This document shows, piece by piece, positions 1,931 to 55,730 of a DNA stretch of 64,000 nucleotides. This DNA comes from an uncultured Muribaculaceae bacterium (GTDB lineage Bacteria > Bacillota_I > Bacilli_A > RF39 > UBA660). The position numbers and the translations under genes were made by a program. The DNA is taken from positions 9,371-73,370 of the forward strand of contig CAZELY010000003.1 of NCBI GenBank assembly GCA_964513345.1. The letters are read 5' to 3'. The stretch's first letter is position 1. Each line of letters opens with the position of its first letter. The notes under the pieces are model-generated. The model ran no database searches and was not told where the DNA came from. It worked only from the letters and a program-made list of their open reading frames with translations.

Positions 1931-3163
1931 ATGCGCATTGGAATTTTTACTGAGACGTATACCCCATATATAAGTGGATTAGTTACTAGTGAAGTAATGC
2001 TTAAAAAAGCCCTTGAAAAAAAAGGGCATGAAGTATATGTTGTGACAGCCAATTTAGAAGGTTTCCATTATGATTATGATGAAGAGGAAAAAGTTTTAAG
2101 AATTCCTGGAATTCCAACCGGTATATATGATTCTAGACTTACTAGTATTTATCCTATTAAAGCTATTAATAAAATAAAAAGTTGGAAACTAGATGTTATT
2201 CATTCACAAACTGAATTTGCGATTGGATCTTTTGCCAGATTGTTTGCTAAACAATACAATATACCAATTGTTCATACATATCATACAATGTATGAAGATT
2301 ACGTTCACTATATAACTAAAGGACATTTCAATAGATCAAGTAAAAAACTTGTAGAATATTTGACAAAATTCTATTGCGACAAGACTATTAATGAACTTAT
2401 TGTACCAACTAAAAAAGCATACAATTTGTTTAAAGAAAAATATAATGTTGAAAGAAATATTCATATTATTCCAACCGGTATTGAAGTTGAAAGATTTTAT
2501 AAAGAAAATATTAATCTTCGAAAACTAGCTGAATTAAAAAGAAAATGTAAAATTAAAGCAAATGATTTTGTCTTGATTTTTGTAGGTCGTATTGCTGAAG
2601 AAAAAAACATTCCTTTTGTTATTGATGTTGTTAGTGAACTATCTAAAACTAATAAAAATTTAAAACTATTGATAATTGGTGATGGCCCTGATAAAGAAAT
2701 ATATGAGGAATATGTAAAGCAAAAAAAGGCGACAAGCAATATTATTTTTACTGGAAAGGTCCCATGGGAAGATATTCCATTATATTATAGTCTGGGAAGC
2801 GCTTTTATTTCAGCGTCAACCACAGAAACGCAAGGACTTACTATTATTGAAGCTATGGCAGCCTCACTTCCAGCTTTATGTATTGATGATGAAAGCTTTA
2901 ATGGTACAGTTGTTGATGATTTAAATGGTTATTTATTTAAAGATGAGAAAGAATGTCGAGAATGTATTTTAAAACTACTTAAAAGTAAGAAAAAACTACT
3001 TTATTTAAGTAAGGGCGCAAGAGCGAGTGCCGAAAATCATTCATCTAAATATTTTGCTGAAAGAGTTTTAGATGTTTATAAAAAAGCCATAAGAAAAAAA
3101 GAAAAAAGTTTTTATAGCAAATTTAAAAAAAGAATTCAAAAGTTTAAATTTTGGAAAAAATAA
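1931..3163 (+). CDS. GT4 glycosyltransferase, probably a diacylglycerol alpha-glucosyltransferase (glycolipid synthase)
   Basis: The N-terminus MRIGIFTETYTPYISGLVTSEVMLKKALEKKGHEVYVVT resembles alpha-monoglucosyl-DAG synthases of Acholeplasma and Streptococcus. A GT4 E-x7-E region (TETQGLTIIEAMA) is present. Confidence 0.6.
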   Translation: MRIGIFTETYTPYISGLVTSEVMLKKALEKKGHEVYVVTANLEGFHYDYDEEEKVLRIPGIPTGIYDSRLTSIYPIKAINKIKSWKLDVIHSQTEFAIGSFARLFAKQYNIPIVHTYHTMYEDYVHYITKGHFNRSSKKLVEYLTKFYCDKTINELIVPTKKAYNLFKEKYNVERNIHIIPTGIEVERFYKENINLRKLAELKRKCKIKANDFVLIFVGRIAEEKNIPFVIDVVSELSKTNKNLKLLIIGDGPDKEIYEEYVKQKKATSNIIFTGKVPWEDIPLYYSLGSAFISASTTETQGLTIIEAMAASLPALCIDDESFNGTVVDDLNGYLFKDEKECRECILKLLKSKKKLLYLSKGARASAENHSSKYFAERVLDVYKKAIRKKEKSFYSKFKKRIQKFKFWKK

Positions 3164-3166
3164 ATA

Positions 3167-3197
3167 AGAGAAGTACTAAAATACTTCTCTTTATTTG
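3167..3197 (+). terminator. Rho-independent terminator after the GT4 gene
   Basis: AGAGAAGTA-ctaaaa-TACTTCTCT hairpin followed by a T-rich run. Confidence 0.7.
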
Positions 3198-3209
3198 TTC
3201 TTAAAAACA

Positions 3210-3216
3210 TTCGACA
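3210..3216. promoter_or_regulatory. Candidate Spo0A (0A) box upstream of spo0A
   Basis: TTCGACA is the exact reverse complement of the TGTCGAA 0A-box core. It lies about 75 nt upstream of the spo0A start. Confidence 0.4.
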
Positions 3217-3290
3217 AAATTAGCTATTATTTACTCTAGAAAATGAAAATTATGTTTTGTATAATTAAAAAAAGTAAAGGAGAATAAGAA

Positions 3291-4058
3291 ATGGAAACAA
3301 TAAATGTATTAATGATTGATGATAATGTAAACTTAATAGACATGGTTAAAGAATATTTTAAGGAAAAGAAAGGTGTTAATGTTATAAAAGAAGCCTACGA
3401 TGGAATTCAAGGACTAGAAATAATTAAAGAAAACTTAGATGAAATTGACTTAATTATTTTAGATTTGATTATGCCAAAAAAAGATGGAATTTATGTTTTA
3501 AAAGAGATGAAAAAGTTAGGAATTGATAAAAAAGTAATTGTCGCAACTAGTTATAATGCTGCCGAAGTGATTAGAGAAGTTTCAGAATATGGAGTTAATT
3601 ATTATATTTTAAAACCATTTGATTTAGAAGACTTAGAAAAAAGAATTCACGAAATAACCAACAAAAAAAATGAAAATAAAAATATTGATTTTTACAATAG
3701 TAATATTCAAGTGTCAATTACTAAAATGCTGCATGAGCTAGGTATTCCATCACATATTAAAGGGTACCAATATATTAGAGAAGCCGTCAACATTATTTTT
3801 AAAAATCCCGAAGTTATTGGCGGCATTACTAAAGAATTATACCCTGAACTAGCTACTAAATTTTCGACAACTGTATCTCGAGTTGAAAGAGCTATTAGGC
3901 ATGCCATTGAAGTTAGTTGGAATCGAGGTAATTTAGATTTTATGGAGGAATTATTTGGATATAGTGTTGATATTGATAAAGCTAAGCCAACAAATTCAGA
4001 GTTTATTGTCACTATTGCCGATAAACTAAGATTAGATTACCATAAAGTTGGCAATTAG
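3291..4058 (+). CDS. spo0A: Sporulation master response regulator Spo0A
   Basis: Receiver domain (DD at 10-11, D in [11 protein letters not shown]) plus the Spo0A-specific C-terminal domain ([23 protein letters not shown] ... [19 protein letters not shown]). Confidence 0.9.
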
Positions 4059-4113
4059 AAAGTTTATACTTTCTTTTTTTTAATTTCTATTATATAATTA
4101 TTATGGTGATACT

Positions 4114-4470
4114 ATGAAGAAAAATGGTTTTACATTAATTGAACTAGTAGGCGCAGTCGTTATTATAGCTATATTGGCATTAATCGCGTTTCCAGCCTTA
4201 GTTAGTATGTTAAATAAAGGTCAAGCTAAAATAGATAAATCAGTTAAGGAATTTGTTATGGCGGCTGTAGCGGAGTATGTTAATGATAATATTGATAGTT
4301 TAGGTACAAAACGTAGAATTGATGTAACTGCAGATTTAATAGAAAATGGGTATATTTCAACATCGTTTGCCGATAAGTACTGCGAAATCAAAAATGATTA
4401 TGTCATAATAGATTTGGGAACATCTTTAAAACAAAAATATCAGGAAGTCATGCCAGACGATAATTGTTAA
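4114..4470 (+). CDS. Prepilin-type N-terminal domain protein (pseudopilin-like)
   Basis: MKKNG|FTLIELVGAVVIIAILALIAFPAL, an LIENGYIS motif and a C-terminal Cys pair. It has its own -10 (TATAAT) and its own terminator (AAAACTATTT/AAATAGTTTTT). Confidence 0.8.
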   Translation: MKKNGFTLIELVGAVVIIAILALIAFPALVSMLNKGQAKIDKSVKEFVMAAVAEYVNDNIDSLGTKRRIDVTADLIENGYISTSFADKYCEIKNDYVIIDLGTSLKQKYQEVMPDDNC

Positions 4471-4547
4471 AAACTATTTTAAATAGTTTTTTTGTTTGCT
4501 AAAATTTATTTTTTATTATATAATACCTATCCAATGGGGGAATTAAT

Positions 4548-5024
4548 ATGAAAAATGTTCATTTTTTTGACAAAATTAAGGATGATAAATCATATAAATT
4601 AGCATTATCGACAGCCGTTCTAATAGCGGCTTTATTTCCAGTAAATGCCTATGCTTCTGAAGAACTTAGTGTAGAATATAAATATAATGGCACGCTAATT
4701 GATATGATTAATCCTACTAATTGGGATTATAATTATAACACAGCGATCATTAAAACAGCCAATACAAATATAACTATAAATAGTGAAGAGTTGGAAGCTT
4801 TAGTGGATACTGATGATGATACACTAACTATTAGTGACGGTGGAAGTACAATTACTTATAATAAGAGCGATTTAAAAAAGGAAATGATCAGTGCTAAAGA
4901 AAGTTATAATCCGAATGGCGAAAAAGTAAAAAAAATCATTTTAAATGGTGGTGTAACAATTACTTTTTTAGGAGCAACAGGATTATGTATTTACAATGAA
5001 ATGAAGGAAAGAAAAAGACGTTAG
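4548..5024 (+). CDS. Secreted protein with a C-terminal TM segment and basic tail (function unknown)
   Basis: Sec-type signal (..FPVNAYA|SEE) and a C-terminal NGGVTITFLGATGLCIY-NEMKERKRR. No LPXTG motif. Confidence 0.5.
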   Translation: MKNVHFFDKIKDDKSYKLALSTAVLIAALFPVNAYASEELSVEYKYNGTLIDMINPTNWDYNYNTAIIKTANTNITINSEELEALVDTDDDTLTISDGGSTITYNKSDLKKEMISAKESYNPNGEKVKKIILNGGVTITFLGATGLCIYNEMKERKRR

Positions 5025-5059: not shown

Positions 5060-6034
5060 ATGTGGAAAATTGGCAATGTTGAAATTAATAATAAAGTTGT
5101 TTTAGCGCCGATGGCTGGCATTTCAAATAGTGCGTATCGTCGTATTGTAAAAGAGATGGGCTGTGGACTAGTTGTATGTGAAATGGTTAGTGATAAAGCT
5201 ATTTTTTATGGTAGTACAAAAACCATTGACATGCTTTACATGACCGATTTTGAAAGGCCAATTTCCCAACAAATATTTGGAAGTGATTTAGAAAGTTTTA
5301 AAGTCGCTGCCAAATTTATTGAAGAAAAGATGCATCCAGATATTATTGATATTAATATGGGTTGTCCAGTTCCAAAAGTTGCGACTAGAGCACAAGCTGG
5401 AAGTGCATTATTAAAAAATCCAGAAAAAGTGTATGAAATTGTAAAGGCCGTTGCTGATACTGTGTCAGTTCCAGTAACTGTTAAAATTAGAAGTGGTTGG
5501 GATGCTAATAGTATCAACGCTGTAGAAATTGCTAAAGTATGTGAGAAAGCCGGAGCTAGTGCGATTGCTATTCATCCACGAACTCGTAGTCAAGGATATA
5601 GTGGCAAAGCCGATTGGACAATTATTAAAAAAGTGAAAGAAAGTGTGAATATTCCAGTCATTGGCAATGGGGACATCAAAAATCCAATAGATGCCAAAAG
5701 AATGATAGATGAAACGGGTTGCGATGCTGTAATGATAGGAAGAGCAGCGATTGGGAACCCTTGGTTGATACGTGATACTATTGAATATCTAGAAAATGAA
5801 ACTATTTTAGAAAAGCCAAGTTATAGTGAAATAATTGAAATGATAAAAAAACATTTAAATTATTTATTGGAAACTAAGAAAGAAAATATTGCGGTTAAAG
5901 AAATGAGAACTCATATCAGCTATTATTTAAAAGGAATGCCAAAAAGCAGTGAAGTCAAAGAAAAAGTTTTTAAAGTAACAACTAAAGATGAATTATTTAG
6001 CATTTTAGATGACTATTTACAAAAATTATCATAA
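5060..6034 (+). CDS. dusB: tRNA-dihydrouridine synthase
   Basis: LAPMAGISNSAYR, the INMGCP catalytic Cys region and MIGRAAIGNPW. Confidence 0.9.
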   Translation: MWKIGNVEINNKVVLAPMAGISNSAYRRIVKEMGCGLVVCEMVSDKAIFYGSTKTIDMLYMTDFERPISQQIFGSDLESFKVAAKFIEEKMHPDIIDINMGCPVPKVATRAQAGSALLKNPEKVYEIVKAVADTVSVPVTVKIRSGWDANSINAVEIAKVCEKAGASAIAIHPRTRSQGYSGKADWTIIKKVKESVNIPVIGNGDIKNPIDAKRMIDETGCDAVMIGRAAIGNPWLIRDTIEYLENETILEKPSYSEIIEMIKKHLNYLLETKKENIAVKEMRTHISYYLKGMPKSSEVKEKVFKVTTKDELFSILDDYLQKLS

Positions 6035-32667: not shown

Positions 32668-33333
32668 GTGATGAATATAGTAAAAGCCGTTATTTTTGAT
32701 ATGGATGGTTTAATGTTTGATACCGAAAAATTATGGGAAGACGCTTTTTATCATATTGGTAAGGATTTTAATGTAACGCTTGATGCAAAATTTCATATGA
32801 GAACAATTGGCATTACAGAAAAAAACATTTGTGCTATATTTAAGAAAGAATTTGGTCAAGATTTTCCTTTTGATGAGTTTCTTTATAAATGTCGTCAATA
32901 TATGGATGATATTATTAAAAAAGGCGGTTTAAAGCAAAAAAAAGGATTAAAAGAATTATTGGAATATTTACATTCTAATAACTATTTAATTGCTATTGCT
33001 TCTTCATCTAAAAGAAAGAGAATTCTTTGGTATTTAGAATGTGCTGGTATTGATAGAAATATATTTCAAACTATTATCAGTGGTGAGGATGTTACTAATG
33101 GAAAACCAAATCCTGAAATTTTTCTTAAAGCAAGCAAGCTTTTAAAGACTATTCCAGAAGAGACGATAGTATTAGAAGATTCTAATAATGGTTTAAATGC
33201 GGCCATTGCGGGCGAATTTATAAGTATAGCTATTCCTGATATAGATATCATAAAAAAAGATGTTCTAGATAAAGTTGATTATAAATTTGAATCATTATTA
33301 GATGTAATTGATTTATTAAAAGAAGGTGAATAA
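32668..33333 (+). CDS. HAD-IA family hydrolase (beta-phosphoglucomutase-like)
   Basis: Motif I FDMDGLMFDTE, S-S motif II, and K...EDS..G motifs III/IV. Confidence 0.8.
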   Translation: MMNIVKAVIFDMDGLMFDTEKLWEDAFYHIGKDFNVTLDAKFHMRTIGITEKNICAIFKKEFGQDFPFDEFLYKCRQYMDDIIKKGGLKQKKGLKELLEYLHSNNYLIAIASSSKRKRILWYLECAGIDRNIFQTIISGEDVTNGKPNPEIFLKASKLLKTIPEETIVLEDSNNGLNAAIAGEFISIAIPDIDIIKKDVLDKVDYKFESLLDVIDLLKEGE

Positions 33334-33334
33334 T

Positions 33335-34210
33335 ATGGTTATTGTTATAACTGGCCCAACGGCGACTGGCAAATCAGAATTAAGTTTGTTCTTAGCTAAA
33401 AAGTTAAAAGGTGAGATTATTAATGCAGATAGTACACAGGTATATGAAGGACTTGATATTGCCACGAATAAAATTCAAGATAAAAAACATATTTATCATC
33501 ATTTGTTTGATATTATTCCAATAGTTGAAGATTATACAGTTTTTGATTATCAAAAAGATACGAGAAAAATAATTGATCGCATTTTAGAGCAAGGAAAAAC
33601 ACCTATTTTAGTCGGTGGCACGGGGCTTTATATAAAAGCCGCTTTATATGATTATGAATTCACCAAAAAAGAAAAAAACACATATGAGGGGATTGATAAT
33701 GAAAAACTTTATAAAAAACTATTAAGTATTGATCCTGATACTGATATTCATAAAAATAATCGTGTGAGAATAATTAATGCCCTAAATTATTATGAAGCTA
33801 ATCATAAACCATATAGTAAAAAAGAAAAAAACGAAAAATTATTATATGATACACTATTTATTGGACTTACAGCTGATAGAAAAATTCTTTATGATAAAAT
33901 TAATACAAGAGTTGACAACATGTTTGAAGAAGGTCTTTTGGAAGAAGCAAGAAGATTGTATGATTCAAAAATTAGAACAAAAGCAATTATGACACCAATA
34001 GGATATAAAGAATTGTTTGATTATTTTGAAGGTAATATAACATTAGAAGAGGCTACAGAGCTTATAAAAAGACATAGCCGCAACTATGCTAAGAGGCAAT
34101 ATACATGGTTTAATAATCAAATGAAATTAAAATGGTTTAATACTGATTATGATGATTTTAAAAATACTGAAAATGAAGTTTTAGAATATATTAATAGTAA
34201 GAAAAAATAA
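33335..34210 (+). CDS. miaA: tRNA dimethylallyltransferase
   Basis: ITGPTATGKS P-loop, VGGTGLY and RQYTWF. The ATG at 33335 is preferred to the GTG at 33326. Confidence 0.9.
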   Translation: MVIVITGPTATGKSELSLFLAKKLKGEIINADSTQVYEGLDIATNKIQDKKHIYHHLFDIIPIVEDYTVFDYQKDTRKIIDRILEQGKTPILVGGTGLYIKAALYDYEFTKKEKNTYEGIDNEKLYKKLLSIDPDTDIHKNNRVRIINALNYYEANHKPYSKKEKNEKLLYDTLFIGLTADRKILYDKINTRVDNMFEEGLLEEARRLYDSKIRTKAIMTPIGYKELFDYFEGNITLEEATELIKRHSRNYAKRQYTWFNNQMKLKWFNTDYDDFKNTENEVLEYINSKKK

Positions 34211-34231
34211 ATATTTTTTCTTTACACAAAT

Positions 34232-34260
34232 TTGACATTTTTCATAATTTGTGCTAAAAT
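34232..34260 (+). promoter_or_regulatory. Strong sigma-A-type promoter driving the large noncoding region
   Basis: TTGACA (34232-34237), a 17-nt spacer, then TGc-TAAAAT (extended -10, 34252-34260). Confidence 0.65.
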
Positions 34261-34265
34261 TTTAA

Positions 34266-34735
34266 GTGTTGTGGTGCATTATTCTAGTTACATAACGCTA
34301 AAGGAAGGTAGGCCTAAAAATCTACCGGTTGCTGTAACGACACTTTATATATTTGCTTTTTCTGCCCAAGTTAGGGTGAATATATAATTTAAAGATCTAG
34401 GAACTCTATAATGGCATATAGTAGCTACTCCTGGATTTGCGTCATTATCAATCAAATCGGCAGGTCGTGAGTGGTATTGTGGGATAAACTTTTAACGATT
34501 AATACCCTGATCAGGTTTTAAATCTTTTGAAAACAATACTGCAAAAGCGGATAAGCTTAGCTCATTATGTATTAGGGAAAACCTCTAGAGTGTATATATT
34601 ATAAGTCTTGTAGTGCGGACCGAATGGCAATCGAGTCATTAATTCGGCGACGATTAATTGCTTTCTTTAAATAGAAATAGCCGGTGGGTAACCTAAGGTA
34701 GAAAGTAGAGAAATTCAACTCGACCACAGCCGTAA
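34266..34735 (+). ncRNA. Large structured noncoding RNA candidate (possibly OLE-class); not RNase P or tmRNA by motif
   Basis: No ORF in 567 nt of intergenic DNA, which is visibly more G+C-rich than the flanks. A long-range closing helix pairs GTTGTGGT (34268-34275) with ACCACAGC (34723-34730). There are many local hairpins: GGTAG/CTACC 34307-34326, GATTTG/CAAATC plus CCTG/CAGG 34430-34464, GGTATT/AATACC 34473-34506, and CCGAAT/ATTCGG 34620-34647. No terminator precedes the downstream four-TM gene. Confidence 0.6.
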
Positions 34736-34777
34736 AATTAATTTATAATATACCATAATGTTTTTTAAGGTGATCAA

Positions 34778-35290
34778 ATGAAAAGAGATAATTGGATTTT
34801 AATTATATTTATATTAACGTTCATATTGTCTTTTTTATTTAGTTCTATTTCTAATTTAATTTCCAATTTTAATATAGTTGCGATGATAATAATATTACTT
34901 GCTACTATATGCTTTGGTGTTGTTTTCGATATGATTGGTGTTGCCGTATTAAGTGCTAATGAAGCCACTTTTCATGCTAAAGCAGCTAACAAAATATATG
35001 GATCTAAAAAGAGTATAGAACTAATTAAAAATGCCAATAGAACTAGTAGTATTTGTAATGACGTTGTCGGTGATATTTGTGGAATTATTTCTGGTGCTCT
35101 AGCAGCTGGATTAATTATCATGCTGTGGGATACGCCAATTTTTGCTGCCATAATTACAGCTATTGTTTCGAGCCTTACGGTTGGCTTTAAAGCCATCGGT
35201 AAAAAAATGGCCATTAAACATGCTGACAATATTGTGGAAAAAGTTGGCATTATTATTAGTAGAATAGAATTTAAAAGAAAAGAAAAATAG
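34778..35290 (+). CDS. Small four-TM membrane protein with basic loops (OapA-like position)
   Basis: 170 aa with four hydrophobic helices, acidic motifs in the helices (FDMIGVA, NDVVGDICG), and Lys/Arg-rich loop and tail. Lies directly downstream of the structured RNA. Confidence 0.6.
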   Translation: MKRDNWILIIFILTFILSFLFSSISNLISNFNIVAMIIILLATICFGVVFDMIGVAVLSANEATFHAKAANKIYGSKKSIELIKNANRTSSICNDVVGDICGIISGALAAGLIIMLWDTPIFAAIITAIVSSLTVGFKAIGKKMAIKHADNIVEKVGIIISRIEFKRKEK

Positions 35291-35308
35291 ATCAAATTGA
35301 TCTATTTT

Positions 35309-36205
35309 TTATTGACCTTCTACATAATAAGCATAATATTCTTCTAAAGTAAGGTTTTCATCTTTAATTATTTTAGCTACTTCTTTTCCGACATAGCGGT
35401 AGTGCCATGATTCATAAGTATACCCTGTAACATCTTCTTTATTCTTTGGAAATCTTAAAATAAATCCATATTTATGAGCGTTTTTATCTAGCCATTTAAA
35501 AGCATCAGTGTTTTCAAATCCACTATTTATTTGATTAATATCGGTAGCTAAGCCAGTTTGATGTTCAGAAAAACCAGGCCTTGCTGAATATGTATCAGCG
35601 GCTTCTTTGCCATCTTTGGAAACGTAGTTATTGTATAAAGTAACTTGGTAGTCATAGCTTCTAAAAGCGGATGCATTTTTAATCGAAATATTTTCTAGCA
35701 ATGCGGCATTACTCATTTCCATAAATGCATCAGCGGCCACTTTACGCATTGTATTGTTTTTGCCAATATTATATTCATCGGTTAATACAACTAGATCATT
35801 AGGTATATAATTATCTTTCAAATAGTAATATTTATTTACTAACATTAGATTACCTTTACTTAAATCTGTTTCAAAAACATCTTTGTATTTTTCTTTGTCT
35901 AAATTGGCATTAACATCAGTAATAACTTTATTTAGTGATAAACTATTATTCTTATTGTAATAGTCGACATAGCGTTTCAAATTGTTTTTGATAAAATACT
36001 TTTCTTGCGCTAATTTTTCTTCAAGTGTAATTTCATCTTTGGTGTTGTCTTTTGTATCTTCTGTAACATTTGCTTGTTTCACATTATCACCAGTTTCTTT
36101 TGGGTTATTAGTAATAAAATAAATTCCTATTATAATTAATACTATGAATATAAATAAAACAATACTTTTATTTTTTTTCTTTCTTTTTCGAACCATCGCT
36201 AACAT
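35309..36205 (-). CDS. Membrane-anchored M15B (VanY-type) D,D-carboxypeptidase
   Basis: SEHQTGLATDI and ESWHYRYVG zinc-site motifs, plus an N-terminal TM. Confidence 0.85.
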   Translation of the reverse strand: MLAMVRKRKKKNKSIVLFIFIVLIIIGIYFITNNPKETGDNVKQANVTEDTKDNTKDEITLEEKLAQEKYFIKNNLKRYVDYYNKNNSLSLNKVITDVNANLDKEKYKDVFETDLSKGNLMLVNKYYYLKDNYIPNDLVVLTDEYNIGKNNTMRKVAADAFMEMSNAALLENISIKNASAFRSYDYQVTLYNNYVSKDGKEAADTYSARPGFSEHQTGLATDINQINSGFENTDAFKWLDKNAHKYGFILRFPKNKEDVTGYTYESWHYRYVGKEVAKIIKDENLTLEEYYAYYVEGQ

Positions 36206-37154
36206 CCTTATCTAAATAAAATGCATAATATTCATCATATGTCAAACCAGAATTTTTAACTTTAGTGGCTAAATCTTGACCTAAATAACGGTAGTGCCAA
36301 GATTCATAAGAATAGCCTGTAATATTTTCTTTATCCTTAGGATACCTTAAAATAAAGCCGTATTTATGAGCATTTTTACTAAGCCATTTGAAAGCATCGG
36401 TCTGGTCAAAGTTTTTACCATTTGCTCCATAAGTAATAATATCAATAGCTAAACCGGTTTGGTGTTCAGAGTGATTTGGTCTAGCAGCATAGCCATCAGC
36501 ATATTCTTCACCTTTAGTGTTTTTATAATTATCATATAATCCTTTTTGATATTCATAAGTGCGAAAACCAGAATTTATGATTAGAGTTATATTTTCTTTT
36601 TTGGCAGCGTTAAACATATTCTTAAAAGCATCATATACTTCGCTTCTTAAACTATTATCACCATAGGCATATTGATTACTGGCTTTTACAAGATCTTCGG
36701 GTTTATATTTTTCAGGCAAAGAATAATACTTATTAACTAAAATCGAATATCCATTATCCATATTAGTTTCTTTAATGTGAGTATAGTAATCATAATTACG
36801 TTTAACATTTACAATAGTAATAATTTCGCTGTAATCTATTTTATTAGTTTCTTGTTTTTTCTTATTTATATATTCCTTATAAGTATTATAGTTTTTCCAA
36901 ATAAAGTATTTTTCGCTAGTTAAAGGAATTAACTCTTTATCATATTTTGTTAGCGCTTTATCGATAACTTTTTGGTCTGATTTTATTAGTGTGCTAATTT
37001 CGCTTTCATTGTACCCAATCTGACCAAGTTTATATTCATAACTATTATAATATTTATATAGTTTAAAACCAACAATTCCGCCAATTATCAGTAACACAAA
37101 AATTATTAAAATAACGATTGGCCATTTTTTAATTCTTCTTCTTGTTTGATACAT
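36168..37154 (-). CDS. Membrane-anchored M15B (VanY-type) D,D-carboxypeptidase, tandem paralog
   Basis: SEHQTGLAIDI and ESWHYRYLG, plus an N-terminal TM. The start is taken at MYQTRRR (37154). Confidence 0.85.
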   Translation of the reverse strand: MYQTRRRIKKWPIVILIIFVLLIIGGIVGFKLYKYYNSYEYKLGQIGYNESEISTLIKSDQKVIDKALTKYDKELIPLTSEKYFIWKNYNTYKEYINKKKQETNKIDYSEIITIVNVKRNYDYYTHIKETNMDNGYSILVNKYYSLPEKYKPEDLVKASNQYAYGDNSLRSEVYDAFKNMFNAAKKENITLIINSGFRTYEYQKGLYDNYKNTKGEEYADGYAARPNHSEHQTGLAIDIITYGANGKNFDQTDAFKWLSKNAHKYGFILRYPKDKENITGYSYESWHYRYLGQDLATKVKNSGLTYDEYYAFYLDKDVSDGSKKKEKK

Positions 37155-37279
37155 AAAGTCACTACCTTTCATAACAAAATTGTATCATAGTTTTTACACT
37201 TTAAAAAAAGAAAAATTTGTTTTTTGATTTACGATGTAAAGTAAAAGTGATATAATGTAATAAAGAATAGGGTGAATCT

Positions 37280-38395
37280 ATGAGAGGATTAAGAAGACAT
37301 AGAAATAGAAAACAAGTAAAAATAGTACTTTGTATGGCCATATGTTTATTAACTATCATGACAGTTGGCTATGCTGCTTTTAGTACTAATATTGGATTAA
37401 ACGCTAAGGGGAATTTGATAGAGTGCTATCAAAACAGAAAATGGGATTTTGATCATAAAAAAGAAGCTCAAGAAATTACCATTTCTTGCCCGGGAGTTTA
37501 TCTGTTTGAGCTGTGGGGCGCAGGAAACAATTATTCTGGCGGTGGTTATACTTCTGGTAAAATAAGCTTGCAAAGAAATGACAAATTTTATCTATATGTT
37601 GGTGAACAAGGCCATGATAATAACAGTGATACAATTGGGGGATGGAATGGTGGTGGCAACACCATTGCGACAACACAGGGTAAATCTGGAATGACTGGTA
37701 GTGGTTCAACTGATGTAAGGACAGTATCAGGTGACTGGGATAATTTTAATTCTTTAAAGTCAAGAATTATGGTTGCTGGAGGCGCTGGAGGAGTAGGAGG
37801 CGCAAACCAAGGTGCCAATGGTGGCGGCTTGGTTGGTTATGATGGATCCTCTACTAATACAGATTATTTAATTTATTTAGGTAAAGGTGGTACCCAAACA
37901 GCCGGAGGCGCTGCACCTACCAAATATGATGCTGCTCAATCTAATGGCACACCTGGTTTGTTTGGTAAAGGTGGCACCGGTGGCGCAAGTCGCGATGATA
38001 CTTCGACCGGTGGTGGCGGAGCTGGTGGTGGCGGCTACTTTGGTGGTTCAGGAGCCAGTGGACTTTCCAATGGCACGTTTGCTGCTGGTGGTGGATCATC
38101 ATTTATATCAGGGCATGTTGGTTGTATAGCTATTGATCAAAATTCTACTGAAAGTAATATTCAGCAAAGAAAAGGAACAAATAATGCAACTTGTGTAGAT
38201 AATTCCACTGATGTATTATGTTCACGTCATTATTCAAATTATATATTTACCGAAACTGAGATAATTGATGGTAAAGGTTATGGATGGACAAACAATATTG
38301 GAAGTTATGAAGGTCAACCACAACCAGATAGTACTATTGCTGCTGGACATATTGGTAATGGCCACGCTAGAATAACATTGATCTCACTTAATTAA
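37280..38395 (+). CDS. Secreted glycine-rich-domain protein with a TasA/SipW-type leader
   Basis: Leader ..TIMTVGYA|AFSTNIGLNAKGN. The body reads CPGVYLFELWGAG..GGGYTSG..LYVGEQG..GGWNGGG..GSGSTDVR..IMVAGGAGGVGG..GGGGAGGGGYFGGSGA..GGGSSFI, which resembles the bacterial 'glycine rich protein' family related to the ALK/LTK glycine-rich domain. Confidence 0.6.
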   Translation: MRGLRRHRNRKQVKIVLCMAICLLTIMTVGYAAFSTNIGLNAKGNLIECYQNRKWDFDHKKEAQEITISCPGVYLFELWGAGNNYSGGGYTSGKISLQRNDKFYLYVGEQGHDNNSDTIGGWNGGGNTIATTQGKSGMTGSGSTDVRTVSGDWDNFNSLKSRIMVAGGAGGVGGANQGANGGGLVGYDGSSTNTDYLIYLGKGGTQTAGGAAPTKYDAAQSNGTPGLFGKGGTGGASRDDTSTGGGGAGGGGYFGGSGASGLSNGTFAAGGGSSFISGHVGCIAIDQNSTESNIQQRKGTNNATCVDNSTDVLCSRHYSNYIFTETEIIDGKGYGWTNNIGSYEGQPQPDSTIAAGHIGNGHARITLISLN

Positions 38396-46923: not shown

Positions 46924-46989
46924 AGACTTTATAAAAAGTCTTTTTGTTTATACTTGAATTAAACTTTAATTTGTACTATAATTATTTTA

Positions 46990-47200
46990 ATTGCGATGAA
47001 TAAGAGTAGTAATAATTTATTTGTTTTAAAGAGAGAAAACGGTTGGTGAAAGTTTTTAAATAAAGGTTATGAACTTACTTAGGAGCTGCATATATGATAA
47101 GTATATGCCGTATGTGGTGCGTTAAACTATTGAGATAATTAAAGCATTATAAAATAAGGTGGTACCACGTTCAATACGTCCTTATGCATAATGCTTTTTA
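46990..47200 (+). promoter_or_regulatory. T-box leader (Leu, specifier CUU)
   Basis: Promoter TTGAAT-17 nt-TATAAT (46954-46982). Stem I elements AGAGA and GGTTGGTGAAAG, a GAA-CUU-A specifier at 47071-47077, the T-box AAGGTGGTACCACG at 47156-47169, and a terminator ending in TTTTT. Confidence 0.85.
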
Positions 47201-47214
47201 TATTAGGAGGACTT

Positions 47215-47559
47215 ATGAAATATTTATTAACGTTTATTTTTAGTTTTGTTATTATTTATTTGCTTTATTATTTAACGGTTGTAAGACGTGACAAGGGGAT
47301 TGAAGCATTCAAACAAGGAAAACAACTTTTATTTTTTAAAAATGCTTATAAATTAAATATTGATAAGTTGAATTATAAAAAATTTGCTAATGCACTAGCG
47401 ATAACTAATGCTTTTATCGTGGCATCAGTTGTAACGATTATTGAATGCGTAAATGGCTATATCCTTAAGCTACTCGTTGGCTTTGTAATTTTAATTCCGC
47501 TTATTTTAATTTGTTATTACATTTTAGGACGCATTTATAAAAAGAAAGAGGGTAAATAA
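47215..47559 (+). CDS. Small membrane protein between the T-box leader and leuS
   Basis: AGGAGG RBS; 114 aa with N-terminal and C-terminal TM segments. Its stop lies 1 nt before the leuS ATG. Confidence 0.5.
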   Translation: MKYLLTFIFSFVIIYLLYYLTVVRRDKGIEAFKQGKQLLFFKNAYKLNIDKLNYKKFANALAITNAFIVASVVTIIECVNGYILKLLVGFVILIPLILICYYILGRIYKKKEGK

Positions 47560-47560
47560 A

Positions 47561-49975
47561 ATGTATGATTATAAAAAAATAGAAAAGAAATGGCAAGAAT
47601 ATTGGGATAAGAATAAAACTTTTAAAACTGATAGTTGGGATTTTTCTAAACCTAAGTTTTATGCCCTTGATATGTTTCCATATCCATCAGGAGTTGGACT
47701 TCATGCTGGACATCCAGAAGGATATACGGCAACAGATGTTGTTTGTCGTATGAAAAGAATGCAAGGTTATAATGTTCTTCATCCAATGGGTTATGATTCT
47801 TTCGGACTTCCTGCTGAACAATATGCTATTCAAACGGGTAACCACCCAGCTATATTTACTAATGAAAATATTAAAACTTTTAGAGGGCAATTAAAATCAC
47901 TTGGTTTTTCGTATGATTGGGATAGAGAAATATCAACTTCTGATCCCGAATACTATAAATGGACCCAATGGATTTTTAAAAGACTTTTTGAAGATGGTCT
48001 TGCTAAATATGTTGATATGCCTGTCAATTGGTGTGAAGGATTAGGTACAGTTTTATCAAATGATGAAATTGTTGATGGAAAATCAGAACGCGGAGGATTT
48101 CCAGTCGTTAGAAAAAATATGAAACAATGGGTTATTGATATTCCGAAGTATGCCGAAAAATTGCTTGAAGGATTAGATGAATTAGATTGGCCAGAATCAA
48201 CTAAAGAAATCCAAAGAAATTGGATTGGTAAATCAAAAGGTGTCGAAGTTAAATTTAATATTAAAGGTGGCGGTTTTTTCAAAATATATACAACGTGTAT
48301 TGAAACTATATATGGTATTACTTTTATGGTTCTAGCGCCTGAAAATCCTTTAGTTGATGAGCTTAAAGATAGAATAGGTAACTGGGATGAAGTAGTTAAA
48401 TATAGAGAAGAAACTGCTACAAAATCGGATATCGATAGAACCGAATTAAATAAAGAAAAAAATGGTGTTATTCTTGAAGGTGTATATGCGATTAACCCTG
48501 TGAATAATAAAGAAGTGCCGATTTATTTAGGTGACTTTGTTCTAGCAAGTTATGGAACTGGTGCTGTGATGGCTGTACCATCACACGATCAAAGAGATTT
48601 CGAATATGCTTTAAAATATGATATTCCAATGATTCAAGTTATCGAAGGTAAAGATACGTCTAATGAGGCTTTTGAAAAGCAAGATTATTTAGGTAAAGAT
48701 TGCAAACTTATCAATAGTGATGAATTTAATGGAATGACAGTTGAAGAGGCTAAACCAGCAATTACTAAAAAATTAATTGATATGGGCGTTGGTGAAGAAA
48801 AAACCAATTATAGATTAAGAGAATGGATTTTTGCTCGTCAAAGATATTGGGGTGAACCAGTGCCGATTATCCATTTAGAAGATGGAAAAAGTATAGCTTT
48901 ATCTGATGATGAATTACCATTAATTTTGCCAACATTAGATGACTATCAAGGTAAAAAAGGGAAAGCTCCTTTGGAAAATGATCAAAATTGGGTTAATGTC
49001 GAAGTGAATGGTAAAAAAGGAAGACGCGAAACATCAACGATGCCAGGCTCAGCTGGATCTAGTTGGTATTTCTTACGATACATCGATCCACATAACGAAA
49101 AAGAATTTGCTGATTATGAATTGTTAAAACATTGGATGCCAGTTGATCTATACGTTGGAGGCCCTGAACACGCTGTTGGTCATTTGCTTTACTCCAGAAT
49201 GTGGAATGAATATTTATATGATAAAGGATTAGTTCCATGCAGTGAACCATTTAAAAAATTAGTTCATCAAGGAATGATTTTGGGCTCTAATGGACTTAAA
49301 ATGGGTAAACGTTTTCCTAAATATTGTATTAATCCATCGGATATTGTAAGGGATTTTGGTGCAGATACATTAAGGCTTTATGAGATGTTTATGGGGCCAC
49401 TTGATGCCGACAAACCATGGAGTGATGCTGGAGTCGTTGGCGCCAAAAAGTTTATTGACAAAGTATTCAAATTATATACTGAAGAAAACAAAATCTCTGA
49501 TGAAGAAAATAAAAATCTCGAAATGATTTATCATCAGACCGTAAAGAAAGTTACTAATGATTATGAAACATTAAATATAAATACGGCAATATCACAAATG
49601 ATGATATTTATGAATGCCGTTCAAAAAGAAAATACATATCCAAGAAAATATGCCGAAGGGTTTATTAAACTTTTAAATCCACTTTGCCCACATGTAACTG
49701 AAGAACTATGGGAAATATTAGGTCACGAGGATACTATTGCTTACGAAGATTGGCCTATATATGATGAAGAAAAGACAATTGATTCATCATATGAACTAGT
49801 TATTCAAGTTAATGGCAAGGTAAGAGGTAAGATAACATTACCAATGGACTCTCCTAAAGAAGAAATGGAAAAAGCTGCGATGGAAAATGAAAATACTAGA
49901 AAGTTTATTCAAGATAAAGAAATTGTCAAGGTTATTTCTATTCCAAACAAACTTGTAAATATTGTTGTAAAATAA
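47561..49975 (+). CDS. leuS: Leucine-tRNA ligase
   Basis: HAGHPEGY (HIGH region), KMGKR (KMSKS-like), 804 aa. Confidence 0.95.
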   Translation: MYDYKKIEKKWQEYWDKNKTFKTDSWDFSKPKFYALDMFPYPSGVGLHAGHPEGYTATDVVCRMKRMQGYNVLHPMGYDSFGLPAEQYAIQTGNHPAIFTNENIKTFRGQLKSLGFSYDWDREISTSDPEYYKWTQWIFKRLFEDGLAKYVDMPVNWCEGLGTVLSNDEIVDGKSERGGFPVVRKNMKQWVIDIPKYAEKLLEGLDELDWPESTKEIQRNWIGKSKGVEVKFNIKGGGFFKIYTTCIETIYGITFMVLAPENPLVDELKDRIGNWDEVVKYREETATKSDIDRTELNKEKNGVILEGVYAINPVNNKEVPIYLGDFVLASYGTGAVMAVPSHDQRDFEYALKYDIPMIQVIEGKDTSNEAFEKQDYLGKDCKLINSDEFNGMTVEEAKPAITKKLIDMGVGEEKTNYRLREWIFARQRYWGEPVPIIHLEDGKSIALSDDELPLILPTLDDYQGKKGKAPLENDQNWVNVEVNGKKGRRETSTMPGSAGSSWYFLRYIDPHNEKEFADYELLKHWMPVDLYVGGPEHAVGHLLYSRMWNEYLYDKGLVPCSEPFKKLVHQGMILGSNGLKMGKRFPKYCINPSDIVRDFGADTLRLYEMFMGPLDADKPWSDAGVVGAKKFIDKVFKLYTEENKISDEENKNLEMIYHQTVKKVTNDYETLNINTAISQMMIFMNAVQKENTYPRKYAEGFIKLLNPLCPHVTEELWEILGHEDTIAYEDWPIYDEEKTIDSSYELVIQVNGKVRGKITLPMDSPKEEMEKAAMENENTRKFIQDKEIVKVISIPNKLVNIVVK

Positions 49976-52933: not shown

Positions 52934-52975
52934 TAGATTATTGACAAAACAAACATAAAAGATTATAATTTATAG

Positions 52976-53190
52976 AAAACGAAGAACAAGAGGAGTAGAG
53001 TATATATTTTTTAAAGAGAGTTAGTGGTTGGTGAAAACTAATAAAAATAATATTTGAAGGTAGCTTGGGAGTTGATGCACGAATAGTTAATGTACTCCGC
53101 TAAAACGGCGTTATTGTTTTAAGGTAATTAATAATTACAAATTAAGGTGGTACCACGTGCAAAACGTCCTTATACAGGGGCGTTTTTTTA
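52976..53190 (+). promoter_or_regulatory. T-box leader (Val, specifier GUA)
   Basis: Promoter TTGACA-17 nt-TATAAT (52941-52969). AGAGAG and GGTTGGTGAAAAC, specifier region GAAGGUAG at 53056-53063, the T-box AAGGTGGTACCACG, and the terminator AACGTCC..GGGGCGTTTTTTT. Confidence 0.85.
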
Positions 53191-53207
53191 TTGGAAAGGA
53201 TGATAAC

Positions 53208-55730
53208 ATGTTAGATAAGAAATACAATCATTTAAAAGTTGAAGAAGGAAAGTATGAAAAATGGAAGGAAAAAGGTTATTTTGCTAGCGGAGACACTTCA
53301 TTAAAGCCATATTCCATTGTAATACCCCCTCCAAATGTAACAGGGAAATTACATTTAGGTCATGCATGGGATACAACACTTCAAGACATTTTAATTAGAT
53401 TTAAAAGAATGCAAGGGTATGATGCATTATGGCTTCCTGGCATGGATCATGCGGGTATTGCCACACAGGCTAAAGTTGATGCCAGACTTCGTGAAAATGG
53501 TATTAATCCTCGTGAGATGAGTAGAGAAGAATGGCTTAAAGCCGCTTGGGCTTGGAAAGAAGAGTATGCTGCTAACATCCATGATCAATGGGCAAAATTA
53601 GGGCTTTCATTAGATTATTCTAAGGAAAGATTTACTTTAGATGAAGGCTTATCTGAGGCTGTTCGTCACGTTTTTGTTACTTTATATGAAAAAGGTTTAA
53701 TTTATCAAGGTGAAAGAATAATAAACTGGGATCCCGTTCAAATGACAGCTTTGTCTAATGAAGAAGTTGTTTATAAAGAAGAACCTGGTAAATTTTACCA
53801 TATTAAATATTTTATTGAAGGAACTGATGAATATTTAGATGTTGCAACAACTAGACCAGAAACTCTATTCGGCGATACTGCTGTAGCGGTTAATTCTAAA
53901 GACAAAAGATATAAAAAATATATTGGTAAGAATGCCATTTTACCAGTTTTAAATAAACCAATTCCAATTATTGCTGATGAGCATGCTGATATGGAAAAGG
54001 GAACTGGTGTTGTTAAGATTACCCCTGCTCATGATCCAAATGACTTTGAAGTTGGAGAAAGACATAATTTAGAAAAAATTGTTATCATGAATAAAGATGC
54101 TACTATGAATGAAATATGTGGTAAATATGCAGACATGGATAGATATGAATGTCGCAAGGAACTTTTAAAAGATTTAGAAAAAGACGGATTATTAATCGGT
54201 ATGGAAGATATTGTCCACTCAGTTGGTCACTCCGAAAGAAGTGGGACGGCAGTAGAACCATATCTTTCAAAACAATGGTTTGTTAAAATGCGTCCATTGG
54301 CTGATAACGTTTTGAAAAATCAAAAAGATAAAGATAAGAAAGTAAATTTTGTACCATCAAGATATGAAAAAACTATGAACCACTGGATGGAAATTACTTA
54401 TGATTGGTGTATTTCTAGACAATTGTGGTGGGGTCATAGAATACCAGCTTGGTATAAAGGCGATGAAGTATATGTTGGTATGGAAGCACCAACTGAAGAA
54501 GGTTGGGTACAAGATGAAGACGTATTAGACACTTGGTTTTCATCAGCTTTATGGCCATTTAGTACGATGGGCTGGCCAAAGAAAACAGAAATGATGGAAA
54601 GATATTATCCTAATAATGTTTTAGTAACAGGATTTGATATTATTTTCTTTTGGGTTAGTAGAATGGTATTCCAGGGATTAGAATTTACGGGGGAAAGACC
54701 ATTTAAAGATTGTCTTATCCATGGACTTATTCGTTCAAAAGATGGAAGGAAAATGAGTAAAAGCTTAGGCAATGGTGTTGATCCAATTGACATGATAGAA
54801 GAATATGGTGCCGATGCTTTAAGGTTTTATCTATCTACTTCAGCAGCAGCCGGAACTGATTTAAAATTTGATGAAGATAAAGTTAAATCAACTTGGAATT
54901 TTATTAACAAATTATGGAATGCTTCAAGATATGTTTTAATGAATACCGAAGAATATAATGAGACTTTAGATGATTTAACACTGGCGGACAAATGGATTTT
55001 AACTAAGTTAAATAAAACAATTAAACAAGTTACTAAAAATATGGAAAAATATGAATTTAATTTAGTTGGTTCTACCTTACATTCATTTATTTGGGATGAT
55101 TTCTGTGATTGGTATATTGAACTTTCTAAAATAAATATGAATGATACAACTAAAACTGTTTTAGTTAAAGTATTAAAAGATATTTTAAAGATGTTACATC
55201 CATTTATGCCATTTGTAACTGAAGAAATTTACACTAAAATTTCTGCCGAAGCAACAATTATGAAGTCTAAATATCCAGAATATGATAAAAAATGTGTTTT
55301 TGAAGAAGCAAATGACATGGATAACATTATTGAACTAATCACTAAAGTTCGTAAATTAAAACTAGAAAATAATATTAAGGAACTCTATTTGAAATATGAT
55401 AGTGACATTTTAAACAAAAACAAAGATATTATAGATAAATTATTAAAAGTAAAATACATTGATAACTATGCTAATTTGGATAGCTTTGAAATTAACTTTA
55501 ATGGTGAAAGTATATATTTATATTATGATGGGTCTGCCAATAAAGAAGCTGAAATTGATGGCTTACAAAAAGAAAAAGAAAGATTAGAAGCCTCAATTAT
55601 TAGGAGAGAAAAACTTCTTTCTAATGAAAACTATGTCAACAAAGCTCCTAAAAATATAGTAGATACTGAAAAAGCTAATTTAGAAAAAGAAAAACAAGAA
55701 TTAGAAATTATAATTAATAAATTAAAGTAA
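53208..55730 (+). CDS. valS: Valine-tRNA ligase
   Basis: The start at MLDKKYN follows the T-box terminator. [13 protein letters not shown] (HIGH), KMSKSLGN, and a C-terminal coiled coil. Confidence 0.95.

Follow-up and report, generated by a model that had tools for sequence, protein, structure and literature searches.

We analyzed a window of 64,000 nucleotides (nt), the whole stretch of DNA considered here, on contig CAZELY010000003.1. By its sequence, the gap that follows miaA in this window is identified as a gene for OLE RNA, and the next gene as oapA. The locus is almost certainly an ole-oapA cassette, with a compact OLE RNA that lacks helices P7 and P8, its own promoter, a hairpin at its end and a proposed role in a ribonucleoprotein (RNP). 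An earlier reading of the letters (the original prediction) had suggested the OLE/OapA pairing. It was borne out by a full-length match to the Rfam OLE family (RF01071), by the published traits of OapA, and by OLE-like DNA upstream of oapA at 78 of 80 related loci. Earlier publications already cover OLE RNA as a class, its partnership with OapA and also the compact variant. The locus is not a new one; it is annotated by a routine Rfam scan and adds no new kind of element.

The whole window was scanned with Rfam 15 at gathering thresholds, which gave three matches: OLE and two T-box leaders. The OLE match spans model positions 1 to 616 of 616 without truncation and scores 229.2 bits (E 2.3e-63), compared with a gathering score of 50. 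The match is located in the 567 nt between the miaA stop codon (34210) and the next ATG (34778). As the original prediction had stated, this gap has no real reading frame, the mechanical open reading frames (ORFs) in it being at most 51 amino acids long (51 and 42), and its G+C content is raised (0.36-0.37, versus 0.20-0.30 in the flanks). The internal hairpins and other sequence features that it had listed are all present in the DNA.

Comparison with relatives indicated that the OLE fold is conserved. As comparison loci we used the best 80 of 542 stretches encoding OapA relatives, found by scanning the GTDB species genomes. The window RNA was aligned with 24 short-form relatives (n=25, 71% mean identity), which come from metagenome-assembled genomes (MAGs) of uncultured gut Bacilli/Erysipelotrichales. 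The pairs projected onto this alignment were the Rfam pairs plus P1, P2, P3 and P3.1, long-range helices found by complementarity. The P-numbers were assigned from hairpin order and from loop identities in the text of PMC12265935, with the A-rich loop of P4, the kissing loops of P5.1 and P6.1, and the symmetrical loop of the long P9 as landmarks. The fold is paired in 89.2% of the alignment cells, compared with 36-42% for slid controls, the structure having been projected from the Rfam alignment of the same window sequence. Changes on both sides are found at 79 of the 139 pairs, and none of 500 shuffles matches the observed value. Covariation in relatives, which the original prediction had proposed as a test, is present.

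The closing helix of the RNA is P1, which is 79.6% paired across the alignment. Five of its pairs changed on both sides, none of 500 shuffles attained the observed pairing, and the minimum free energy (MFE) fold of the window sequence also closes with it. The folded RNA would extend from about 34267 to 34759, about 490 nt, and end 8 nt ahead of the oapA Shine-Dalgarno sequence. The size of about 470 nt given earlier is therefore too short, the 3' end being about 30 nt further on. The earlier figure came with a different closing helix of 8 base pairs (bp), between 34268-34275 and 34723-34730. Its complementarity is real (seven Watson-Crick pairs and one G-U), but as a conserved closing helix it failed. 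It is 60% paired in the alignment, 426 of 500 shuffles are as good, 21 or more of the 25 sequences cannot form three of its pairs, and it overlaps two consensus helices. A run of six U residues after the 3' strand of P1 was considered as a terminator and rejected, since the run is not conserved among relatives.

Inside P1, the long-range helices P2, P3 and P3.1 are also kept. P2 is paired in 100% of the sequences, with one pair split between GC (12) and UA (12). P3 and P3.1 each have five pairs with changes on both sides, and together they measure 12 bp, agreeing with the length quoted in PMC12265935. P4 is 99.3% paired and has three pairs changed on both sides. In P5/P5.1 such changes are found at 10 of 19 pairs. 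The helices of the 3' domain are 69-100% paired, and five to seven pairs have changed on both sides in most of them.

The OLE gene is preceded by a sigma-A/sigma-70 type promoter. Its -35 element is TTGACA (34232-34237) and its extended -10 element TGcTAAAAT (34252-34260), an 11 of 12 match with the TG present. It is the top-scoring site within 33200-36400, in agreement with the near-consensus promoter described in the original prediction. The predicted transcript start is at about 34267-34269. In all 24 close relatives a promoter is kept at this position (TTGACA/TTTGCA, a spacer of 17-18 nt and TGnTATAAT), and its -10 element ends 7-12 nt ahead of the conserved GUGGUGCA. No comparable promoter is present in the full-length forms L042 and L077. 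Judged from the sequences, this positional conservation supports the promoter far more strongly than one consensus match does.

The protein encoded downstream has the characteristics of OapA. Hydropathy and charge analyses agree with the original description of a 170-residue protein with four transmembrane (TM) segments and basic loops. Hydropathy analysis alone places the hydrophobic segments at about residues 6-25, 33-57, 96-117 and 121-140. Net charges are +4 for the 58-90 loop and +6 for the C-terminal tail. A mass of about 20 kDa and a cluster of basic cytoplasmic residues are among the traits expected of an OapA. OapA has been described as a distant relative of the CNNM proteins that scores just below MpfA on PF01595, with four TM helices, a distinctive DxxxD motif, no CNNM proline, and CorB 7M1U as its closest structure (PMC11332333). 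In the window protein the DxxxD motif is D95-VVG-D99, inside the block SSICNDVVGDICG, and it is invariant in 81 of 81 sequences. The match to the Pfam CNNM family (PF01595) scores 27.8 bits, under the cut-off of 28.4, and no NCBIfam model matches. Among PDB entries, sequence matches were found to CorB 7M1T and 7M1U alone (E 0.039), and these weak matches were all that a search for a solved OapA structure by sequence returned. The proline of the CorB motif 'GEIGPK' faces a lysine in the window protein ('AIGKKM'); we take this to be the CNNM proline meant in PMC11332333. By the published traits the 170-residue protein is thus identified, from its sequence, as OapA, and RNA binding and membrane localization of the RNA, which have been shown for H. 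halodurans only, would follow by analogy.

The pairing of the two genes is general among the relatives. An nhmmer search with the window RNA as query located OLE-like DNA upstream of oapA homologues at 78 out of the 80 loci, directly so in all except L004. In the two remaining loci, less than 200 nt of upstream sequence is present. A re-scan with Rfam confirmed OLE in 13 of 13 loci tested. The compensatory changes in stems, the conserved promoter and the intact OapA together indicate purifying selection on the locus. L004 is the sole interrupted pair among the 78. There, a 409-residue ORF (3488-4717) with a signal-peptide-like N-terminus splits ole (2846-3349) from oapA (5326-5850).

Table 1. 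Features of the miaA-ole-oapA region, in window coordinates.
Feature	Position	Strand	Remarks
miaA	33335-34210		stop at 34210
Promoter, sigma-A/sigma-70 type	34232..34260	+	-35, 17-nt spacer, extended -10
Rfam OLE (RF01071) match	34255..34772	+	includes model flanks
P1 5' strand	34268..34276	+	GUUGUGGUG; pairs with 34751-34759; closing helix
P2, P3, P3.1 5' strands	34282-87, 34289-95, 34297-301	+	
P4 hairpin	34307..34326	+	conserved A-rich loop CCUAAAAA; covariance model and alignment
P5/P5.1 hairpin	34343..34388	+	loop GCCCA (34364-68)
P6/P6.1 hairpin	34393..34438	+	loop AUGGCA (34411-16); covariance model and alignment
P6-to-P9 linker	34439..34463	+	17 nt at 34442-34458 in place of P7/P8
P9 long arm	34464..34551	+	distal part kept; covariance model and alignment
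P2, P3, P3.1 3' strands	34585-90, 34565-71, 34557-61	+	flank P10
P10 hairpin	34574-34584	+	AGGGAAAACCU; within 34557..34590
3' domain, P12-P15 region	34595..34752	+	covariance model and alignment
3' domain outer helix	34595-605/34742-52	+	
3' domain inner helices	34614-18/34730-34; 34631-36/34718-23	+	
P13	34638-58	+	GNRA loop GCGA (34647-50); 1-nt bulge U34643
P14 and P14.1	34659-34707	+	loop GUAA (34688-91)
P1 3' strand	34751..34759	+	UACCAUAAU; putative 3' edge of folded RNA
U6 run	34761-66	+	after P1 3' strand
Shine-Dalgarno sequence of oapA	34767..34772	+	AAGGUG; 5 nt ahead of ATG; read from sequence
oapA	34778..35290	+	170 residues; four TM, CNNM-like; ORF, homology and motif
13-bp hairpin, A-tract and U-tract	35282..35310	.	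overlaps oapA stop; -12 kcal/mol

The window RNA is a compact form of OLE. Two subtrees of the Rfam model that hold P7 and P8 (44 and 36 positions) give way in it to 5 and 12 unpaired nt. In the full-length forms L077 and L042, two hairpins read as P7/P8 are found at model positions 198-254 and 262-277. On the Rfam model seven close short-form relatives score 209-252 bits, similar to the window RNA, whereas full-length forms upstream of OapA homologues (L074, L042, L077) score 459-542 bits. A variant 2 OLE in which P7 and P8 are entirely absent and the other conserved nucleotides are kept has been reported; it is often found in uncultured RF39 Bacilli of the gut, whose genomes are reduced and largely without OapB and OapC (PMC11332333). 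Neither P7 nor P8 takes part in dimer contacts (PMC12265935). Because it lacks P7/P8 and keeps the other conserved nucleotides, the window RNA fits this variant, with P1-P6, the long P9, P10 and P12-P15 retained, and its nearest relatives are likewise gut Bacilli-type MAGs. The published variant 2 class spans 235-310 bits on the authors' own covariance model (PMC11332333) and the window clade 209-252 bits on Rfam's, which is a different model.

It is possible, but in our judgment doubtful, that reduction has gone further than in variant 2 and that the window RNA and its 24 relatives make up a compact subclass of OLE. Such a subclass would be about 450-490 nt long, without P7, P8 or recognizable kink-turn (k-turn) sequences and mostly without the distal P9 dimerization arch. 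Each member would have a dedicated promoter, and the cassette would be found in differing genomic contexts. The published survey had a floor of 235 bits, set on another model; the clade scores are close to it, and some members may have gone uncounted. If this reading is true, the clade defines a minimal OLE/OapA core. The window copy, which keeps the long P9 with a GAUC palindrome while the distal P9 is gone in 23 of the 24 relatives, would then be an intermediate form. The palindrome in the P9 loop varies by lineage and stays palindromic. It is GGCC/UGGCCA in most sequences, UAGCUA in L063 and GAGCUC in L074, whereas L021 and the window share UGAUCA. Read at the sequence level, this variation would fit a self-complementary kissing loop.

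The RNA has candidate sites for partners and for dimerization. Binding of OapB requires a GNRA tetraloop together with one bulged nucleotide in P13 (PMC7936274), and the sequence of the window P13 has both elements, the loop GCGA and the single bulge U34643. Sequences of the putative dimerization loops are also found: CCUAAAAA in P4, GCCCA in P5.1 and AUGGCA in P6.1. The P4 loop is a dimerization contact in published structures (PMC12265935), and the P6.1 loop is complementary to the P5.1 loop. The P9 palindrome UGAUCA (34508-34513) is located where the consensus has GGCC; the fold of the P9 tip is ambiguous, as an alternative hairpin can bury the palindrome. Where k-turn junctions J4a/5 and J6/7 are expected, no k-turn G-A pairs are identifiable in the window RNA. 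A short pairing of 3-4 bp between J4a/5 and J6/7 (34339-34341 with 34441-34443; alignment columns 83-94 and 192-202) covaries in the compact clade. It is UGAC/GUCA in most sequences, UGGC/GCCA in L013, GAU/AUC in L001 and UUUC/GAAA in L006. This pairing may be a remnant of the k-turn helix.

Based on these features and on studied OLE systems, we propose the following mechanism. The sigma-A promoter (34232-34260) would drive a transcript from about 34267. This would comprise, in order, the OLE RNA, which is about 490 nt long and reaches about 34759, 18 nt that separate P1 from the oapA start, and the oapA ORF, and would end at the hairpin at 35282-35310. By analogy with the Halalkalibacterium and Clostridium systems, OLE would dimerize via the P4 loop and the P5.1/P6.1 loops, and the GAUC palindrome of P9 could add to the dimerization. 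OapA, CNNM-like and with four TM segments, would bind the RNA near P2 and P4a as a membrane dimer and hold it at the membrane. Recent cryo-electron microscopy work indicates that OLE possibly spans the membrane. As proposed for H. halodurans, the RNP would aid adaptation to stress, for example from excess Mg2+, alcohols, cold or poor carbon sources, and may act by controlling divalent-ion transport.

The element could instead be mainly cis-acting, a long structured 5' leader that controls translation or stability of oapA. The arrangement has this appearance. The 3' strand of P1 (34759) is just 8 nt from the Shine-Dalgarno sequence of oapA, close relatives have the same tight spacing, and, as the original prediction had observed, the RNA runs into the ORF with no canonical intrinsic terminator detected between them by a terminator scan. 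Because of this spacing and the lack of a terminator, OLE would physically be the 5' untranslated region of the oapA mRNA. However, H. halodurans OLE is processed at its 3' end (PMC11332333) and builds up in abundance as a stable RNA with OapA bound to it (PMC11332333; PMC12265935). In addition, about 490 nt with about 17 conserved helices far exceeds the needs of known leaders. We consider a mainly cis-acting role improbable, although a leader and an RNP scaffold are compatible and not mutually exclusive.

The low score of the window RNA, 229 bits and under half of that of full-length forms (about 540), might suggest that this is OLE in decay, a remnant without function in a reduced genome. 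Losses of P7, P8 and the k-turn sequences, and of the distal P9 in most relatives, point in the same direction. This explanation is largely refuted by the covariation, with compensatory changes upholding nearly every remaining helix in the 25 sequences; the promoter is kept in 24 of 24 relatives, and the core motif of the intact OapA is invariant. We regard decay as very improbable. Less credible still, and refuted here, is a large unclassified noncoding RNA with no relation to OLE, or else a protein-coding region that was overlooked. The mechanical 51- and 42-residue ORFs are all that the gap offers to it. Against it are the full-length OLE match (E 2e-63) and the substitutions in relatives, which are compensatory within stems and not codon-like.

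Other observations weigh against the reading that we still favor, an ole-oapA cassette with a compact OLE. The single-sequence MFE of the RNA is no better than that of shuffles (z -1.27; 11 of 100 shuffles fold equally). Because this stability is not significant, the structure is argued from the covariance model and covariation. The k-turn (OapC) sequences GGGCACAUCGAUGAAG in J4a/5 and GUGGAGA in J6/7 are unrecognizable in the window RNA, and the canonical RNP may accordingly lack a part here. Genes for OapB (KOW/YbzG), OapC (L7Ae-like YbxF) and MpfA-type proteins were sought in Pfam-annotated gene lists covering most of the window, and none was found; OapB and OapC are thus not among these window genes. 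Both ends of the transcript, along with any processing or co-transcription, are predictions from the DNA, and the function would be transferred from distant species carrying full-length OLE, the only ones in which it has been studied. The genomic context is also atypical. The usual ole neighborhood (ispA/dxs and others) is absent, and miaA, queA, HAD hydrolase and VanY genes are found near ole in none of the 80 related loci. The position next to miaA, which the original prediction had likened to the hfq slot in other genomes, has no comparative support. Because none of the 80 loci shares the miaA neighborhood, this position is lineage-specific, and its likeness to the hfq slot is coincidental, judging from the gene orders compared.

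At the other end of the cassette, the hairpin that overlaps the oapA stop codon is unusually stable (z -4.98), and none of 200 shuffles folds equally well. The terminator scan missed it because its stem is A+U-rich. Lying between oapA and a convergent vanY-like gene, it probably serves both as a bidirectional intrinsic terminator. Promoter, ole, oapA and terminator appear to form a self-contained cassette. We considered a mobile cassette and looked for flanking direct or inverted repeats; nothing convincing was found. The context of the cassette varies in relatives. A tRNA gene adjoins it in L001 (5347-5420), and an L31 ribosomal-protein leader follows it in L010 (6572-6603) and L021 (3484-3514). 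In the window, two tandem VanY/LdcB-like D-Ala-D-Ala carboxypeptidase genes on the minus strand (35309-36205 and 36168-37172) converge on oapA. Cell-wall genes recur near ole in the literature.

The host is taken as a member of the Bacillota because of the labels of the nearest loci (uncultured Bacilli, Erysipelotrichales or Clostridia), a Spo0A homologue and T-box leaders. This agrees with one part of the original prediction; the other part, that the host forms spores, is unproven, Spo0A alone being insufficient. The Spo0A homologue is at 3291-4058 and has Response_reg and Spo0A_C domains. The exact proteins of the window are found on a few ENA and NCBI metagenomic contigs and fall into tiny clusters, and the nearest relative of its OapA is 60% identical (among the best 80 of 542). 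On these grounds the host is a rarely sampled, uncultured member of the phylum. The two T-box leaders score 124.9 bits (46987-47186) and 122.7 bits (52973-53174). Between the first and the leucyl-tRNA synthetase gene (47561-49975) there is a 122-residue ORF without a Pfam match (47191-47559); the second precedes the valyl-tRNA synthetase gene (53157-55730). The leucyl-tRNA synthetase is encoded by one ORF of 804 residues in the window, compared with two split genes (204 and 549 residues) in the ENA contig L085. A glycine-rich protein of 371 residues (37280-38395) matches PF12810 (ALK_LTK_GRD), which is unusual for a bacterium. Several prepilin-type N_methyl proteins are also encoded in the window.

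The locus is of modest practical value, as a promoter-ole-oapA-terminator unit that is naturally trimmed and comes from a gut bacterium seldom sampled. The locus and its relatives indicate which parts of OLE are dispensable: P7, P8 and often the distal P9. Always kept are P1-P6, the proximal P9, P10, P12-P15 and the DxxxD core of OapA. This map of kept and lost parts could aid the design of minimal constructs.

Compared to full-length OLE forms such as those of Halalkalibacterium halodurans and Clostridium acetobutylicum, the window RNA has the same helices (P1-P6, P9, P10 and P12-P15) and oapA immediately downstream. It shares the conserved blocks GUGGUGCA..CUAGU, CCUAAAAAUC, GCCCA, AAUGGCAU, GAGUG, UGCAAAAG, GGAAAAC, CUAGA, GUGCGGAC..UGG.AAUC, GAGAAAUUC and GACC..AGCCGUAAAAUU. 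It differs in its length, about 490 nt and not about 600, and in the loss of P7/P8 and of a small hairpin at model positions 426-437. Its J4a/5 and J6/7 k-turn sequences have diverged, its P9 loop palindrome is GAUC and not GGCC, and the RNA is very A+U-rich, with 35% G+C. Unlike full-length OLE, it is transcribed, by prediction, from its own promoter and is not located inside a long operon of the ispA-dxs type.

The window OapA shares several traits with its published counterparts. It is located directly 3' of ole, is about 170 residues long with four TM segments, basic cytoplasmic segments and the invariant DxxxD, and has sub-threshold CNNM similarity and no CNNM proline. Its identity to the OapA proteins encoded beside full-length OLE (L042, L074, L077) is 36-45%. 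With the MpfA/CorB/CNNM Mg2+ transporters (PF01595; 7M1T, 7M1U) it shares weak similarity over the transmembrane CNNM domain. Compared to these transporters, OapA has no CBS/CorC domains and four TM segments instead of three, carries the DxxxD motif and a lysine in place of the GEIGPK proline, and is paired with an RNA partner.

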